Source: a virus. Taken from it: DNA of 64,000 bases. A model generated the notes under the pieces. The model ran no database searches. It saw nothing but the letters and a program-made list of their open reading frames with translations, and was not told where the DNA came from. Numbering within the stretch: position 1 is the first letter of the stretch; each line of letters begins with the position of its first letter. The stretch lies in the IMG/VR virus record IMGVR_UViG_3300027749_000039, positions 126,603 through 190,602 of that record; one strand, given 5' to 3'. This document shows, one piece after another, positions 3,030 to 44,579 of this stretch. A program made the position numbers and the translations under genes.

Positions 3030-3119
3030 ATGAAACATTTCAGCTCACATAAACATTCGTTTAAATTCTGGTTTAGCAATCAGGGTTCGGTAGAGTTTTG
3101 TTTCAAAAATGCTTCATAA
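3030..3119 (+). CDS. Attenuator leader peptide L1: MKHFSSHKHSFKFWFSNQGSVEFCFKNAS
   Basis: 3 His, 6 Phe, 1 Trp, 6 Ser; directly upstream of a terminator and His/Trp/Phe/Ser tRNAs. Confidence 0.85.
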   Translation: MKHFSSHKHSFKFWFSNQGSVEFCFKNAS

Positions 3120-4735: not shown

Positions 4736-4745
4736 CTAATAAATT

Positions 4746-4829
4746 GGAAAGTCCTAATTAGGAGTAGTTAGCCGTTTTGAAAACGGTGAAGGTGTAATAG
4801 CCGTGGGGGTTCGAGTCCGTCACTTTCCG
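4746..4829 (+). tRNA. tRNA-Ser(TGA)
   Basis: GCCGT-TTTGAAA-ACGGT, long variable arm, G73. Confidence 0.8.
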
Positions 4830-4840
4830 CAAAATAAAAT

Positions 4841-4918
4841 ACGGGTTTCGTCTAATATTTAAGACACCTCCCGGCAAGGGAGTTAATGTTGTAAGGGTGA
4901 AAATCCTACAACCCGTGC
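4841..4918 (+). pseudogene. tRNA-like unit with unassignable anticodon loop
   Basis: Acceptor ACGGGTT/AACCCGT plus G73 (Trp-like), D stem GTCT/AGAC, loop GGCAAG (6 nt), T loop GTGAAAA. Confidence 0.45.
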
Positions 4919-4933
4919 AAAAAGATTAAAATT

Positions 4934-4969
4934 ATGAAACAATATAAACAGATTAAACAAAAACAATAA
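4934..4969 (+). CDS. Lys-rich mini leader peptide MKQYKQIKQKQ
   Basis: 4 AAA codons in 11, directly upstream of three tRNA-Lys genes; followed by two mutually exclusive hairpins. Confidence 0.6.
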   Translation: MKQYKQIKQKQ

Positions 4970-6807: not shown

Positions 6808-6864
6808 ATGAAAACAATATCATCGTCTAGTCGCAGTAGTTTAACTTTGGAAATCCAGAGATGA
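6808..6864 (+). CDS. Attenuator leader peptide L2: MKTISSSSRSSLTLEIQR
   Basis: TCA TCG TCT AGT CGC AGT AGT run upstream of Ser(GCT), Arg(ACG), a Ser-like unit and Ser(GGA). Confidence 0.85.
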   Translation: MKTISSSSRSSLTLEIQR

Positions 6865-7136: not shown

Positions 7137-7142
7137 CTAATA

Positions 7143-7230
7143 GGAAAGTTGGCAGAGCGGTTTAATGCGCTGGCACTGAAGCCGGTGACTGGCAAAAGCC
7201 GGTCCGTGAGTTCGAATCTCATACTTTCTT
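7143..7230 (+). pseudogene. Ser-type tRNA with a 6-nt anticodon loop (ACTGAA) and U73
   Basis: Ser-like body with long variable arm; the loop is one nt short of canonical CTTGAAA. Confidence 0.6.
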
Positions 7231-7234
7231 ATAT

Positions 7235-29243: not shown

Positions 29244-29989
29244 TGAAACAAGTTGTGTATCTAGGCGATATTCACGGCAACTTTGATTGGTTGAAACGTG
29301 AGATAAAAAGAGTTGGCATAGGTGAAAATGAAGAAGTAGCTTATATAATCCAAGTTGGAGATTTTGGAATCGGATTTAATAATAAATCCGATTTAGATAC
29401 TTTAAACTTATTAAATGAGTTTCTTAAATTGAGGAATATAATAATGATTGCTATTCGTGGTAATCATGACGACCCTTCATTTTTTCAAGGTAATCATATT
29501 TATTCTAATTTGATGTTAGTGCCTGATTATACTACTATGGAAATAGATGGTAGAAACCATTTATTCGTGGGTGGTGCTATATCAATAGATAGAAAGTATA
29601 GGCTACATAAAGATCAGATAGCTGCATCTTATGGCTCTTCACAGAAGTCATATTGGTATGATGAACTATTCTTATTAAATGAAGAAAAGTTAAAAGATAT
29701 AACTGGTATTGATGTAGTTATATCACATACTGCTCCTGAGTGGTGCTATCCTGATAATAGAAATGGGTTTGGTCCATTTGTTGATGAATTTGCTTATGAT
29801 GATGATAAGTTATACACTGATTTGGATAAAGAACGTAAAGATGTGACTAAAATGTTCCAAATTTTAGAAAAAAATGGTAATACTATTCAGTATCATGCAT
29901 ATGGTCATTTTCATTCAAGTCAAATAACTATGAATAGATATTGCAATCATTATTTATTAGGTATAAATGAGTTTAGGGAATTATATTAA
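29243..29989 (+). CDS. Calcineurin-like metallophosphoesterase
   Basis: GDIHG, QVGDFG, RGNHD, SHTAP, GHFH. Confidence 0.92.
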   Translation: MKQVVYLGDIHGNFDWLKREIKRVGIGENEEVAYIIQVGDFGIGFNNKSDLDTLNLLNEFLKLRNIIMIAIRGNHDDPSFFQGNHIYSNLMLVPDYTTMEIDGRNHLFVGGAISIDRKYRLHKDQIAASYGSSQKSYWYDELFLLNEEKLKDITGIDVVISHTAPEWCYPDNRNGFGPFVDEFAYDDDKLYTDLDKERKDVTKMFQILEKNGNTIQYHAYGHFHSSQITMNRYCNHYLLGINEFRELY

Positions 29990-30768
29990 TTCCCTAAACT
30001 CATTTTTATTTCTATATATTTGTTATACTTTCTTTTAAGACCAAAAGTAAAGTCGGAATATAACCAATTTAAAAATTTAATAGAATTTTTTCTACCACCT
30101 ATATATAGAATAGAATGTTTATTATTACCATTTATAATTCTTCTGATAGAATATTTAATACCTAAATTAATAGATATATCTTCTAAATATTTCCAATCTT
30201 GTCCGTATGTGCTTGCAAAATATATTTGAGGTGATTTATTACTGAAGTTTATACACCCATCGCCGTCCATTATTCCTCTTAGAAAATATTTAATATCTTC
30301 CTGTTTAATCTTCATTAAATTAAAATCTGGCGAGGCTGTACTTTTATTTTCATAATTAAATGACCTAAATATATTTACAATATCTTTAGAACAGTATTGG
30401 ATACACGCAGATGTTTTTGTTCTGCCCTTTCTTAATCTTTCATTATAATAAAAATTTCCTAATTTTTCAAATATTGGTTTGATATCGTCTAAATCTTCTT
30501 TTAGTATTTCTATACCTATATTATTACCGACTAAATATCCATCAGACCATAATAATCCCATTATATAGGACACATAAGGATTATCAACTTTTTCAAATGT
30601 ATCTAAACTTGGGTAAATATATTTTTTATTATAACTCAATTTTAATTTTTTAGCTTTGTTTTTAACCATATCAATAGTAAAATTACTCAATATTTCATTT
30701 ATTTTAGTTGGTCCAATTTTGTGGTAGTTTTCTACCATGAATTTTATTTCGTGTTCTTTCCATTCCAT
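29986..30768 (-). mobile_element. LAGLIDADG homing endonuclease
   Basis: YIMGLLWSDG and YFLRGIMDGDG double motif. Confidence 0.88.
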
Positions 30769-30879
30769 AATTTATATATTATTTATGATATAGCCCCTAA
30801 TAATGTTTACACGCAAATAAAATAAATATGAAAATAATTTTGTCAATTCAAAACTTTTTCGTACTTTTGTAATCTAATT

Positions 30880-31075
30880 AAGAACATAGAAACTAGCATA
30901 GTGTAATAAACTATGTAAAAACTTTACATGCTCACAGAACGTTAAAATTTTATCATTATAACAGGTTACTTAATCGAAAGAAGATAATTGGTATAATGTA
31001 TATCTATAAGATATAATAAAATTATAACCTTTCAATCCGAAAGGCATAGACTTAGAGTGTAAAGAGTTTCAAAAA
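30880..31075 (+). ncRNA. Candidate structured ncRNA (~190 nt) with its own host-type promoter
   Basis: No ORF; nested helices AAACTTTACA/TGTAAAG-AGTTT, AGGTTA/TAACCT, CATAGT/ACTATG; two GAAA tetraloop hairpins. Confidence 0.45.
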
Positions 31076-31091
31076 TAAATCTGAAAATAAT

Positions 31092-31122
31092 TTTGCAAAT
31101 TAAAAACTTTATTGTATCTTTG
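31092..31122 (+). promoter_or_regulatory. Bacteroidota-type promoter for tRNA cluster 4
   Basis: TTTG-N19-TATCTTTG. Confidence 0.8.
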
Positions 31123-31206
31123 CAATACAATAATCAATAAAGAAACAAATAACGATAAAAAGTCCATAGAGGAAAAAAGTAGTTTAAAAATTAAATATAT
31201 AATATA

Positions 31207-31308
31207 ATGAAAAACATTAATAGAAATAATAATACCATAAATTTAGTCATAAATAACGTGAATACGTTATGCGTGATTAGAGGAGTTATGGGGTTAAGTC
31301 TATTATGA
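31207..31308 (+). CDS. Attenuator leader peptide L4: MKNINRNNNTINLVINNVNTLCVIRGVMGLSLL
   Basis: Residues 3-25 are all N/I/R/T/L/V/C, exactly the downstream tRNA set. Confidence 0.88.
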   Translation: MKNINRNNNTINLVINNVNTLCVIRGVMGLSLL

Positions 31309-31335
31309 TAATATTTCAAATATATTATAATATTT

Positions 31336-31369
31336 AATCTCAAACTCAAAAAGTTTGAGATTTTTTTTT
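31336..31369 (+). terminator. Intrinsic terminator of attenuator L4
   Basis: AATCTCAAACT-CAAAA-AGTTTGAGATT-TTTTTTT. Confidence 0.9.
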
Positions 31370-31379
31370 ATGTTAAAAT

Positions 31380-31467
31380 GGCGCAGTGATGAAACTGGTT
31401 AGTACATGCAGGACTTAAAATCCTGTGGACAGAAATGTCCGTGTCGGTTCGACTCCGACCTGCGCTA
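31380..31467 (+). tRNA. tRNA-Leu(TAA), long variable arm
   Basis: CAGGA-CTTAAAA-TCCTG; A73. Confidence 0.92.
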
Positions 31468-31474
31468 CAAAACT

Positions 31475-31548
31475 CGGCGGGTAGCTTAGACGGTAAAAGC
31501 ACGAATCTTATAAATTCGAGATAGTGGGATCGTTACCCACCCCTCCGA
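31475..31548 (+). tRNA. tRNA-Ile(TAT)
   Basis: CGAAT-CTTATAA-ATTCG. Confidence 0.85.
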
Positions 31549-31553
31549 CAAAT

Positions 31554-31626
31554 GGTTCTATCGTACAATGGATTAGTACAAGGCTCTTCTAAAGCCTTTA
31601 TGTGGGTTCGAATCCCGCTGGAACTA
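31554..31626 (+). tRNA. tRNA-Arg(TCT)
   Basis: AGGCT-CTTCTAA-AGCCT. Confidence 0.9.
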
Positions 31627-31677
31627 CAATCGTTATTAATTTTTATTAGGGAGTTCGGTTTATATAATATATAATTT

Positions 31678-32484
31678 ATGAGACATAAACAAACAGAACA
31701 AACTAAAAAGAAGTTATCAGAAATAAGAAAAAAATGGTTAGCAGATAATCCAGAAAAACATCCATGGAAAAGAAAAGATAAATTCTTATCTAAGCCTTGT
31801 GAATTTTTCAAAAAGAAATTATTGGAAAATAATTTAACTTTTTCGGAAGAACAAAACTTACTTGAAGGAAGAGCATATTCGGTAGATGTAGTTTTTTATG
31901 ATAAAATGATTGGATTTAAAATAAATGGAAATCAACATTATAATTCAGATAAAACTCTTAAAGATTATTATAAAAAAAGGAAAGAAGAGATTGAAATTTT
32001 AGGATGGAAATTATATGATATACATTATACAAAAGTTTATAATGAAAAATTTATAGAGGAAATAATAAAATTCATAAAAGAGCAAAAGGAAATTCCAAAT
32101 TTTAATTTTGAATTTTTTATAAAAAAGGTTAAAAAAATATGTAAAGATTGTGGTAAAGAAATATCATATAATAGCATAGAAAGATGTTTAAAATGTCATA
32201 ATATATCCAGAAGAACAGAAAAATATGAAGTTAATTTAAAATATAAAATAGGTGCTAATAAAAAAGAAAAATTTATAAAAAATTGTAATTGTGGTGAAAT
32301 AATATCCATAAATTCAAATAATTGTAAGGAATGTTTTGATAAAATACAAAGAAAAATAGTTGATAGACCAAGTTTAGAAATTTTATTAGAAGAGGTTAAA
32401 GATATAGGATATAGTGCGGTTGGTAGAAAATATGGAGTTAGTGATAATTCTATAAGAAAGTGGATAAAAAATTATCAAAAATAA
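31678..32484 (+). mobile_element. DUF559/Vsr-like homing endonuclease with C-terminal HTH, in tRNA cluster 4
   Basis: YSVDVVF..IGFKINGNQHY..R....EILGW; RPSLEILLEEV..VGRKYGVSDNSIRKW. Confidence 0.7.
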
Positions 32485-32488
32485 AAAT

Positions 32489-32560
32489 TGTCGTATAGCT
32501 TAGTGGGGAAGCGTCAGCAGAAGTAGCTGAAGGGCATAGGTTCAATTCCTGTTGCGACTA
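32489..32560 (+). pseudogene. tRNA-like unit, anticodon loop AGAAGTA (AAG, G33)
   Basis: TCAGC/GCTGA stem, normal D and T arms, U1xU72. Confidence 0.5.
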
Positions 32561-32567
32561 CAAATAA

Positions 32568-32639
32568 GGTTCCTTAACTCAGAGGCAGAGTGCTACTTTT
32601 ACATGGTAGAAGTCGGGATTTCAAAATTCCCAGGAACCA
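32568..32639 (+). tRNA. tRNA-Val(TAC)
   Basis: CTACT-TTTACAT-GGTAG. Confidence 0.88.
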
Positions 32640-32646
32640 CAAAAAT

Positions 32647-32718
32647 TGGAATGTAGCTCAGAGGCAGAGCAGGATCCTGTTAAGATCAAGGTCGAGATAT
32701 CGTAATTCTCCATTCCAG
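32647..32718 (+). tRNA. tRNA-Asn(GTT)
   Basis: GATC-CTGTTAA-GATC; G73. Confidence 0.85.
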
Positions 32719-32723
32719 CAAAT

Positions 32724-32795
32724 AGTCTTATAGCTCAAAGGCAGAGTGCCTGTTCGACATACAGGAGGTTGCGATATCGTAATTCGCTAAGACTA
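32724..32795 (+). tRNA. tRNA-Val(GAC), C33
   Basis: CCTGT-TCGACAT-ACAGG. Confidence 0.82.
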
Positions 32796-32804
32796 CAAAT
32801 AAAG

Positions 32805-32878
32805 GGGCGTATGGTGAAATTGGTTTATCACGTCTGACTGTTAATCAGTTATTATAGGTTCGAGTCCTATTGTGCCCG
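32805..32878 (+). tRNA. tRNA-Asn(GTT), second
   Basis: CTGA-CTGTTAA-TCAG; G73. Confidence 0.88.
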
Positions 32879-32905
32879 CTAATTAAATAAAAAAAGTAAA
32901 TAATA

Positions 32906-32984
32906 CGGAACGTACCGAGTCACACTGATAATGTGGATATTCGTAAAGGTGTTGAAAATGAGATTTCAAGATTCTCCGTTCCGA
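32906..32984 (+). ncRNA. D-armless tRNA-Ile(GAT)-like RNA with long variable region
   Basis: Perfect acceptor CGGAACG/CGTTCCG, A73, TCACA-CTGATAA-TGTGG, only 7 nt where the D arm should be. Confidence 0.6.
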
Positions 32985-32990
32985 CAAAAT

Positions 32991-33066
32991 GCCAAATTAG
33001 TATAGCGGCGATTATACCAACCTTGTAAGTTGCGAGACACCAGTTCGAGTCTGGTATTTGGCTCCA
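32991..33066 (+). tRNA. tRNA-Thr(TGT), CCA encoded
   Basis: CAAC-CTTGTAA-GTTG; GCC/GGC acceptor. Confidence 0.88.
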
Positions 33067-33100
33067 CTACTGATCAGAATCCAGTGATTCAGATCTAAAA

Positions 33101-33176
33101 CGGACTATAGCTCATTATTGGTTAGAGCGTCACGCTGATAACGTGAAGGTGGTTGGATCGAAGCCAGCTAGTCCGA
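33101..33176 (+). tRNA. tRNA-Ile(GAT)
   Basis: TCACG-CTGATAA-CGTGA. Confidence 0.9.
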
Positions 33177-33182
33177 CAAAAT

Positions 33183-33255
33183 GCTAAAGTGTCTGAATGG
33201 TTGAGGAACTTTCTTGGTATGAAAGATAATATCGGTTCGAATCCGTTCTTTAGCT
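33183..33255 (+). tRNA. tRNA-Thr(GGT)
   Basis: CTTTC-TTGGTAT-GAAAG. Confidence 0.9.
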
Positions 33256-33261
33256 CTTAAT

Positions 33262-33334
33262 GGCGCCTTGGTCGAGTGGTTATAGGCGCAGGTCTGCAAA
33301 ACCTGATACATTGGTTCAATTCCAGTAGGCGCCT
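33262..33334 (+). tRNA. tRNA-Cys(GCA)
   Basis: CAGGT-CTGCAAA-ACCTG; U73. Confidence 0.92.
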
Positions 33335-33347
33335 CAAATTAAATAAA

Positions 33348-34697: not shown

Positions 34698-35531
34698 ATG
34701 GAAAATAAAAAATTTATTGAAATATGCCAAACAGCCGTAAGTATGGCTGAGGCAGCTAGAATTATAGGAATTGGATTTAATTCTTTTAAGAAAAAAGCAT
34801 TAATATTAAATTGTTATAAAACTAATCAAAATTGGAGAAAAGGTAAAACTGTTTTAAATGATGATAGAATAGAAAGTAAACATACTTTATTTTGTGAAAA
34901 TTCTTCCGCAAGAAGAGAATATATTAAAGGTTTAATTATTAAACATAATTTAATTGAATATAAATGTTTTGATTGTGGATTAAAAAATGAATGGAATGGG
35001 AAAATTTTAAACTTACAGTTAGACCATATAAATGGTGTAAAAAATGATAATAGACTTGAAAATTTAAGATTTATGTGCCCTAATTGTCATTCACAAACAG
35101 AAACATGGTGTAAAAGTAAAGGTAATTCAATAAATAATTTAGATATAGAAATCTTAATTAATACTATAAATAAGTCATTTTCTATGACTAAATTAATTGA
35201 TAAATTAGGAATCTATGATACACAAAATAATAGAAAGAAAATCAAAAAAATAATGATAGAAAATAATCTATCTTTTGAATTTGATAAACAGGAAAAGAAT
35301 AAAATAAATAGTTGTAAGTGTGGTAAATCTATTAAAAAATCAAGTAAAATGTGTTCTAAATGTTGGCAGATAGAACAAAGAAAAGTTAATAGACCTACAT
35401 ATGAGCAGTTAAAAAAAGAAGTAGAAGAAATTGGATATTCAGCAACAGGTAGAAAATATAATGTTTCTGATAATTGCATAAGAAAATGGTTAAAAGCATA
35501 TGTACCCCAATTGGCAGAGGGACACCGTTAA
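34698..35531 (+). mobile_element. HNH homing endonuclease in tRNA cluster 5
   Basis: LQLDHINGVKNDNRLENLRFMCPNCHSQT; C-terminal TGRKYNVSDNCIRKW HTH; 3' end overlaps tRNA-Leu(AAG). Confidence 0.9.
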
Positions 35532-44483: not shown

Positions 44484-44579
44484 ATGAAAAACATTCTAAA
44501 CATACAAAACCCTCAACAACCGCAAGTTGATGTCGATCAGGATCCTGATACGATGAGGACTAACCATGTTAGAATGTAA
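44484..44579 (+). CDS. Attenuator leader peptide L6: MKNILNIQNPQQPQVDVDQDPDTMRTNHVRM
   Basis: 5 Gln, 3 Pro, 4 Asp in codons 8-22. Confidence 0.88.
   Translation: MKNILNIQNPQQPQVDVDQDPDTMRTNHVRM

Follow-up and report, generated by a model that had tools for sequence, protein, structure and literature searches.

What decides when a phage with a large set of tRNA genes transcribes them? To our knowledge there is no settled account of how phages regulate their tRNA sets, large as these often are, and leader-peptide attenuation is not known to act on tRNA genes. The question is raised by a stretch of 64 kb (hereafter the window), which is the final 64 kb of the 190.6-kb viral contig IMGVR_UViG_3300027749_000039 in IMG/VR and contains 45 tRNA genes, all on the + strand and clustered by amino acid, as detected with ARAGORN. 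Immediately upstream of one of these clusters is a short open reading frame (ORF), L4, which an earlier note on this DNA had read as the leader of an attenuator. Our analysis supports that reading at the sequence level through a promoter, a gene-like ORF start, a codon block matched to the downstream tRNAs, a terminator, a mutually exclusive antiterminator, and sister modules in front of other arrays. We put the probability that L4 is a multivalent ribosome-mediated (leader-peptide) transcription attenuator controlling tRNA genes at about 0.8.

The leader codons match the tRNA genes behind them

The two features on which the codon match depends are the following:

31207..31308, + strand: leader ORF of 33 codons plus TGA (ORF call; gene-like start context)
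31213..31281, + strand: sensor block, codons 3-25, every codon of which is readable by the downstream array

The start context of the leader ranks at the 61st percentile among long-ORF starts and, when all ATGs of the contig are taken together, at the 98th. Codons 3-25 encode NINRNNNTINLVINNVNTLCVIR, using AAT/AAC, ATT, ATA, AGA, ACC, ACG, TTA, GTC, GTG and TGC (Asn, Ile, Arg, Thr, Leu, Val, Cys). The array behind L4, at 31380-33335, comprises Leu-TAA, Ile-TAT, Arg-TCT, Val-TAC, two copies of Asn-GTT, Val-GAC, Thr-TGT, Ile-GAT, Thr-GGT and Cys-GCA according to ARAGORN. Under standard wobble, 23/23 block codons are readable by this array, and all ten of its anticodons are sampled (10/10). The proposal that residues 3-25 are all served by a downstream seven-amino-acid tRNA cluster thus stands, with its coordinates and sequences all correct, and ARAGORN confirms the tRNAs it listed, adding one further atypical tRNA at 32489-32561 that had gone unmentioned.

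Array-readable codons account for 38% of the codons in the contig's long ORFs. With composition controlled in this way, the expected number of runs of 23 such codons in the 190.6-kb contig is ~9e-5, counting both strands and all frames. No other run in the six frames exceeds 13, which is the length of the next longest, and long ORFs reach no more than 11. With an expectation of ~1e-4 and a run that is unique in the contig, we rejected chance or composition as its source. Several of the codons used (ACC, ACG, GTC, GTG and TGC) are rare, each occurring 2-5 times per thousand in long ORFs, and a synonymous choice as unusual as that of the block arose in 1.5% of simulations. Coverage of all ten anticodons, given the run, is mildly unlikely (p = 0.12) and not significant alone.

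A terminator and a mutually exclusive antiterminator precede the array

The regulatory elements recognised in the window copy of the leader are:

31092..31122, + strand: Bacteroidota-type promoter, TTTG, 19-nt spacer, TAnnTTTG, with its -7 box at 31115-31122 (motif enrichment)
31230..31240, + strand: region 1, which pairs with region 2 in the minimum-energy fold (full-leader fold)
31283..31299, + strand: region 2, the antiterminator strand, within the tail of the leader ORF (fold, duplex energy, co-variation)
31302..31331, + strand: AU-rich extension of the antiterminator, in which 31302-31310 pairs with 31323-31331 (fold)
31332..31347, + strand: region 3, the terminator 5' arm (31336-31346) and its flank, which pairs with region 2 or region 4 (folds)
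31352..31369, + strand: region 4, the terminator 3' arm (31352-31362) and nine T (31361-31369) (hairpin scan)

The promoter motif is strongly enriched: the window has 22 copies of TTTG-N18-21-TAnnTTTG where 3.5 would be expected, none of 100 shuffles contained as many, and the same motif is found upstream of the leaders at 6808, 16060, 34432 and 44484 and of Met tRNAs. A second occurrence at 30839-30869 lies ~250 nt upstream of the L4 promoter. The ~220 nt that follow it (30870-31090) contain no convincing ORF, only a hairpin at 31027-31045, and the stretch from 30839 to 31090 may encode a small RNA or provide a tandem promoter.

The terminator at 31336-31369 has 11 pairs, a loop of 5 and then nine T, with a hairpin energy of -11.6 kcal/mol. 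In the fold of the full leader (-40.8 kcal/mol, z = -5.9) the terminator is formed and 31286-31296 pairs with 31230-31240, whereas a fold without the terminator 3' arm (-21.8 kcal/mol, z = -4.0) pairs 31283-31299 with 31332-31347 and includes the AU-rich extension. The 11-pair helix that the earlier note had placed between 31284-31295 and the terminator 5' arm (31336-31346) is therefore present, as the core of a longer antiterminator (31283-31299:31332-31347). The duplex of region 2 with the 5' arm has an energy of -11.8 kcal/mol against a shuffled mean of -5.9, and only 1/500 shuffles was as good. As the first tRNA starts at 31380, ~10 nt past the T-run, the array would be transcribed only through read-through of the terminator.

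We also compared the region with Rfam. At gathering score only tRNAs were matched in the window, and no T-box was found; on 30760-31400 at E values up to 10 there were five chance-level matches to unrelated families, with no T-box and no leader of the Thr, Leu, His or Trp type.

The reading frame is constrained in a family of related modules

To find relatives of L4, we searched with a pattern based on the conserved end of the sensor block. This yielded 116 modules, 88 of them distinct and encoding 69 different peptides, and the ORF is intact in 116/116. They come from the uncultured phage genomes LR745206 and LR756502, from ten IMG/VR contigs of 55-508 kb and from at least 119 metagenome contigs; the L4 family is a widespread lake-metagenome lineage of huge phages. 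Applied to 185,579 prokaryote genomes, the same leader pattern had 7 matches, all of them spurious, and hence gave no clue to the host. In about 72/85 modules the first tRNA begins 6-32 nt past the T-run, a gap that leaves no room for a separate promoter, and we rejected a promoter between terminator and tRNA for this reason.

Arrays of the family always carry Asn, Ile, Leu, Val, Thr and Arg-TCT tRNAs, and usually Cys and Met, in shuffled order. The sensor blocks of 76 distinct leaders comprise 1591 residues, 99.4% of which belong to the set N, L, M, T, V, I, C and R; in the tail the share is 31.7%, and only 53% of neutral single-base mutants of block codons would stay within this eight-letter alphabet. 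Both other frames hold stops in 76/76 leader variants. The order and length of the blocks vary widely, which argues that selection acts on codon identity and that the alphabet does not reflect mere sequence conservation.

The window belongs to a small group that differs from the rest of the family in its leucine codons. CTN codons occur in 58/61 distinct L4 blocks, and most relatives keep CTN-reading Leu tRNAs in the same array. The three blocks without them (3/61) are those of the window and of the related contigs L096 and L131 only, all members of a subfamily in which Leu-TAG/AAG/CAA have come to lie behind an L5-type leader with its own terminator. This L5-type leader follows the L4 array in the window, L054 and L096, and was not found in the available L131 sequence; the L054 block, which retains one CTT and one ATG, looks intermediate. 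The loss of CTN codons where CTN-Leu/Met tRNAs moved behind L5 is suggestive of a leader that tracks its array, and only suggestive, being probably a single evolutionary event.

Both helices co-vary across the family

Co-variation was measured on an 88-sequence alignment (A1, made with MAFFT), using 500 shuffles and slid controls. For the terminator, 94.5% of cells are paired and compensatory change is seen at 6/12 pairs, with 0/500 shuffles as high. For the antiterminator, compensatory change occurs at 11/14 pairs (108 cells), a level that was reached in 0/500 shuffles, and every slid control was lower. MAFFT shifts the register of the outer antiterminator pairs in some subfamilies, so that the alignment figure understates the pairing, and we therefore also used a matrix of duplex energies. 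Ten different terminator stem classes were distinguished. On average, region 2 forms a duplex of -18.1 kcal/mol with its own 5' arm, as opposed to ~-9 kcal/mol across classes; a module's own region 2 outperforms every region 2 of another class in 80/88 modules. Region 2 also pairs upstream into the sensor block in 84/88 homologues.

The window copy falls into a small subfamily with L054, L096 and L131, in which the terminator differs throughout from that of the rest. All pairs between region 2 and the 5' arm are Watson-Crick in L054 and L096, whereas three of them are G:U in the window.

Six further leaders precede other arrays in the window

The layout of L4 is repeated before six other arrays, so that the window holds seven leaders in total. 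The others, named by position, are:

Leader 3030: rich in His/Phe/Trp/Lys; array of His, Trp, Phe and Lys tRNAs
Leader 6808: SSSSRSS; array of Ser and Arg-ACG tRNAs
Leader 16060: GAYEAGYAYEG; array of Tyr, Glu, Gly and Ala tRNAs
Leader 34432 (L5): CTA, TTG, CTT and ATG codons; array of Leu-TAG/AAG/CAA and Met tRNAs
Leader 44484: four Asp codons; array of three Asp tRNAs
Leader 45917: QQQQQ; array of three Gln tRNAs

Each leader was scored against each array by binomial enrichment over contig codon usage. The true assignment of leaders to arrays is the single best of the 5040 permutations of seven leaders over seven arrays, and the leader's own array is its best match in 6/7 cases. The exception is the Asp leader, which scores best against the Gln array. 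This leader (44484-44579) also contains five Gln and three Pro codons, and the related contig L010 has a mixed Gln/Pro/Asp/Gln array, which suggests that the Asp and Gln arrays were once a single unit. None of the tRNA genes found in the window is for Pro.

The surroundings of several of these arrays have peculiarities of their own. At 2658-2831, two promoter motifs and a conserved leader 5' region stand before two Met tRNAs, with ATA at the position of the leader ATG and no terminator behind, an arrangement that looks like a decayed leader before the Met genes. The His/Phe/Trp leader at 3030 comes after the Met tRNAs and has no promoter of its own. Further into the same array, two tRNA-like sequences that ARAGORN did not call lie at 4740-4930, between tRNA-Trp and the Lys tRNAs, and an 11-codon Lys/Gln-rich mini-ORF (4934-4969) without a T-run terminator directly precedes three Lys tRNAs. 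In the Ser/Arg array, ARAGORN assigned a four-base anticodon (ctga) to the tRNA at 7142-7231, which is probably a Ser-TGA tRNA with an unusual loop.

A model for attenuation by decoding speed

The sequences themselves show how the module is laid out, that its codons match the array, that both helices co-vary and that the reading frame is constrained. From these properties we infer translation of the leader, kinetic coupling of ribosome and polymerase, a response to tRNA supply, and feedback, in the following way. Transcription would start at the Bacteroidota-type promoter at ~31092-31122, and the leader would be translated while the polymerase advances. If aminoacyl-tRNA for Asn, Ile, Arg, Thr, Leu or Val (perhaps also Cys) were scarce, the ribosome would stall within 31213-31281, leaving region 2 (31283-31299) free to pair with 31332-31347; the terminator would then not form, and the polymerase would enter the tRNA genes. 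With fast decoding, the ribosome would instead cover region 2 on its way to the stop codon, the 5' arm would pair with 31352-31362, and transcription would end at the T-run, ~10 nt before the first tRNA. The net effect would be a negative-feedback supply loop in which a tRNA set is made when the decoding of its own codons is limiting, and the six other leader-array pairs in the window would play the same role for other amino acids.

We modelled the ribosome, crudely, as a set of bases forced to be unpaired around each A-site codon. When the transcript ends short of region 4, a ribosome in the sensor block leaves the 5' arm sequestered with a probability of 0.8-0.99 (0.8-0.97 in the relatives), and in the relatives this value falls to 0.15-0.5 once the ribosome is over region 2, that is, from the final Arg codon to ~10 codons beyond. 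With the complete terminator, an equilibrium model gives the expected switch in the window's subfamily only. In most relatives the terminator wins at equilibrium, so the switch would have to be kinetic, which we assume; for a kinetic switch the equilibrium model says little, and the truncated transcript is the better guide.

The weight of the evidence

A number of observations weigh against attenuation by L4, several of them from these same models. When the whole terminator is present, equilibrium favours it almost wherever the ribosome sits in most relatives, and with neither ribosome nor region 4 the region 2:3 helix is already dominant in most of them. The off state thus probably needs an actively translating ribosome, the region 1:2 helix not being enough by itself. 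The window copy shows a small contrast in the cut transcript, from 0.99 with the ribosome at codons 2-19 to 0.68, and its codons 20-25, among them the sole Cys codon (codon 22), are close to region 2 and borderline. The earlier note had proposed an OR gate over seven amino acids; this remains plausible as a gate, although not one of equal strength throughout, as codon 22 and the last three codons may sense weakly. The window's two helices are also the weakest in the family (-11.6 and -11.8 kcal/mol, with three G:U pairs and a bulge). As for the codon match in relatives, a mean of 84% of block codons is readable by the downstream tRNAs that ARAGORN detects, Met codons are matched by a Met tRNA of the array in only 24/49 modules, and Cys codons by a Cys tRNA in only 31/52. 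The mismatch for Met and Cys arises in part because ARAGORN misses odd tRNAs, such as the odd Cys tRNAs that are visible in LR745206 and LR756502; at 24/49, the correspondence of Met codons with Met tRNAs was dropped as evidence of co-variation. The search pattern fixed the last few codons of the block, whose conservation is thus not independent evidence. Finally, starvation for an amino acid would by itself stall the ribosome, and extra tRNA would be no help then.

We considered three other explanations. The leader might be a general sensor of translational competence or coupling that reports overall ribosome activity or the state of the host, its codon content reflecting ancestry and AT bias. 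Asn and Ile, both favoured at the ~28% GC of the window, do dominate the block, relatives often have Met and Cys codons for which no tRNA was detected in the array, and, as the region 2:3 helix is favoured without a ribosome in relatives, ribosome passage itself may be the main variable. Such a sensor would not account for seven leaders that differ in composition (the others being Ser/Arg; Gly/Ala/Tyr/Glu; Asp; Gln; Leu-CTN/Met; and His/Phe/Trp) and whose assignment to their own arrays is the best of 5040, nor for rare synonymous codons used so that each isoacceptor is sampled, a block alphabet held at 99.4%, and CTN codons lost only where CTN-reading tRNAs left the array; we consider it unlikely. 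It is decidedly unlikely that L4 is an RNA-only switch, in which a protein, small RNA or tRNA binds the leader RNA in the manner of T-box or PyrR and the ORF is incidental. The strong co-variation of both helices requires no translation, and there is a conserved small hairpin within the block, but no Rfam family, T-box included, matches the leader at E values up to 10, the ORF is intact in 116/116 modules with a gene-like start and the other frames closed, and the alphabet constraint falls on the reading frame and not only on paired bases.

Very improbable, in our estimate, is a constitutive terminator or insulator that happens to lie beside a chance or unrelated small ORF, with the tRNAs transcribed by other means, or with the hairpin serving as a processing signal. 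Hairpins with T-runs are indeed common in the AT-rich window, with 10 in 12 kb where 3.1 would be expected, and short ORFs are also abundant. Yet the codon run, expected ~1e-4 times per contig, is found exactly here, there is no promoter space between T-run and first tRNA across the family, and region 2 co-varies with the terminator arm over ten stem classes, which a plain terminator does not need.

The tRNA array behind L4 and its endonuclease gene

The window has a GC content of ~28%, and the contig from which it comes has a completeness rating of 31%. The closest GenBank relatives of the window by blastn are the two phage genomes already mentioned, LR745206 and LR756502 (635 and 642 kb). 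In a blastn comparison of the window with GenBank phages, only tRNAs and the endonuclease gene were matched, with no similarity at the level of the leaders. The elements of the L4 array are:

31380..31627, + strand: tRNA-Leu(TAA), tRNA-Ile(TAT) and tRNA-Arg(TCT), the first starting ~10 nt past the T-run (ARAGORN, Rfam)
31678..32484, + strand: homing-endonuclease-like ORF of 268 amino acids, inserted in the array (weak Pfam matches, blastn)
32489..32561, + strand: atypical 73-nt tRNA gene (Leu-AAG by ARAGORN; 47.8 bits with the Rfam tRNA model)
32568..32879, + strand: tRNA-Val(TAC), Asn(GTT), Val(GAC) and Asn(GTT) (ARAGORN, Rfam)
32905..32985, + strand: tRNA-like element with a GAT anticodon-like loop (sequence; conserved 25-nt core)
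32991..33335, + strand: tRNA-Thr(TGT), Ile(GAT), Thr(GGT) and Cys(GCA) (ARAGORN, Rfam)

Homing-endonuclease-like genes are interspersed among the tRNA genes of the window. For the one inserted in the L4 array, the Pfam matches are weak and comprise a restriction-endonuclease-like domain, zinc ribbons and, at the C terminus, a helix-turn-helix (HTH), and its blastn matches are hypothetical and HNH genes of T4-like phages. Others in or beside the arrays are an HNH ORF (34698-35531) and a LAGLIDADG ORF on the - strand (29986-30768), and the ORFs at 31678-32484 and 34698-35531 have a similar C-terminal HTH segment. Directly 3' of the endonuclease gene, the atypical tRNA at 32489-32561 has a short variable arm and a G in place of the expected U33. 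ARAGORN labels it Leu-AAG; the codon CTT is absent from the L4 block. The tRNA-like element at 32905-32985 lacks an obvious D arm and is called by neither ARAGORN nor Rfam. LR745206, LR756502 and three IMG/VR contigs share its 25-nt core without a difference, in each case within the same array.

Relation to known attenuators and significance

Multivalent leader-peptide attenuators are familiar from enterobacteria, in which the ilvGMEDA leader responds to Leu/Val/Ile and the thr leader to Thr/Ile. L4 resembles them in having a short leader ORF rich in codons for several amino acids, followed by a terminator and an overlapping antiterminator, and the proposed logic is also common to them: a stalled ribosome selects the helix, and a shortage of any one amino acid should de-repress. 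It differs in that it would control tRNAs instead of biosynthetic enzymes, samples ten anticodons for seven amino acids, its synonymous codons apparently being suited to the individual isoacceptors, and is phage-encoded behind a Bacteroidota-type promoter with no sequence or Rfam relationship to those leaders; furthermore, its state without translation may be read-through and not termination. In the pheST attenuator of E. coli, the leader peptide pheM controls phenylalanyl-tRNA synthetase, and L4 would likewise use leader-peptide attenuation to control a component of the translation apparatus for the sensed amino acid. The output of pheST is a synthetase for one amino acid, however, whereas that of L4 would be the tRNA set itself, giving direct feedback on decoding capacity. 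Like a T-box, L4 would report tRNA status, and in both a terminator competes with an antiterminator ahead of genes related to translation. A T-box contains no ORF and binds uncharged tRNA directly through its specifier codon and T-box motif, whereas the sensor of L4 is a constrained reading frame. In L4 the sensed quantity and the product would form a direct feedback loop. We found no description of leader-peptide control of tRNA genes in the full text of PubMed Central and bioRxiv, and a pheL paper that mentions a 'tRNA operon' proved unrelated to leader control of tRNA genes.

Beyond the single locus, the window's leaders may together amount to something larger. With at least seven putative attenuators, the phage could encode a codon-resolved homeostat of the tRNA pool, in which each array is switched on only when the host decodes its codons too slowly. 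Likely triggers would be decay of host tRNAs, their cleavage by anticodon-nuclease defences, and a poor fit of the host tRNAs to the AT-rich codon usage of the phage. Decoding speed would then, for the first time, be known to feed back directly on the transcription of tRNA genes, and the bank of leaders would also be a regulated form of counter-defence; we regard the odds on this wider proposal as even.

Such leaders may be recognisable elsewhere, since a mini-ORF and a terminator before a tRNA array form a signature for annotation, one that pipelines currently miss because the ORFs fall below gene-calling cut-offs; the leaders might also be of use as compact natural sensors of isoacceptor availability. 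If L4 works as we propose, a classical bacterial mechanism would have been re-used by a phage to gauge decoding capacity codon by codon and to top up those tRNAs that run short. This bears on why and when huge phages use their tRNAs, whether to compensate for codon usage or to replace host tRNAs that are lost in infection or to defence nucleases.

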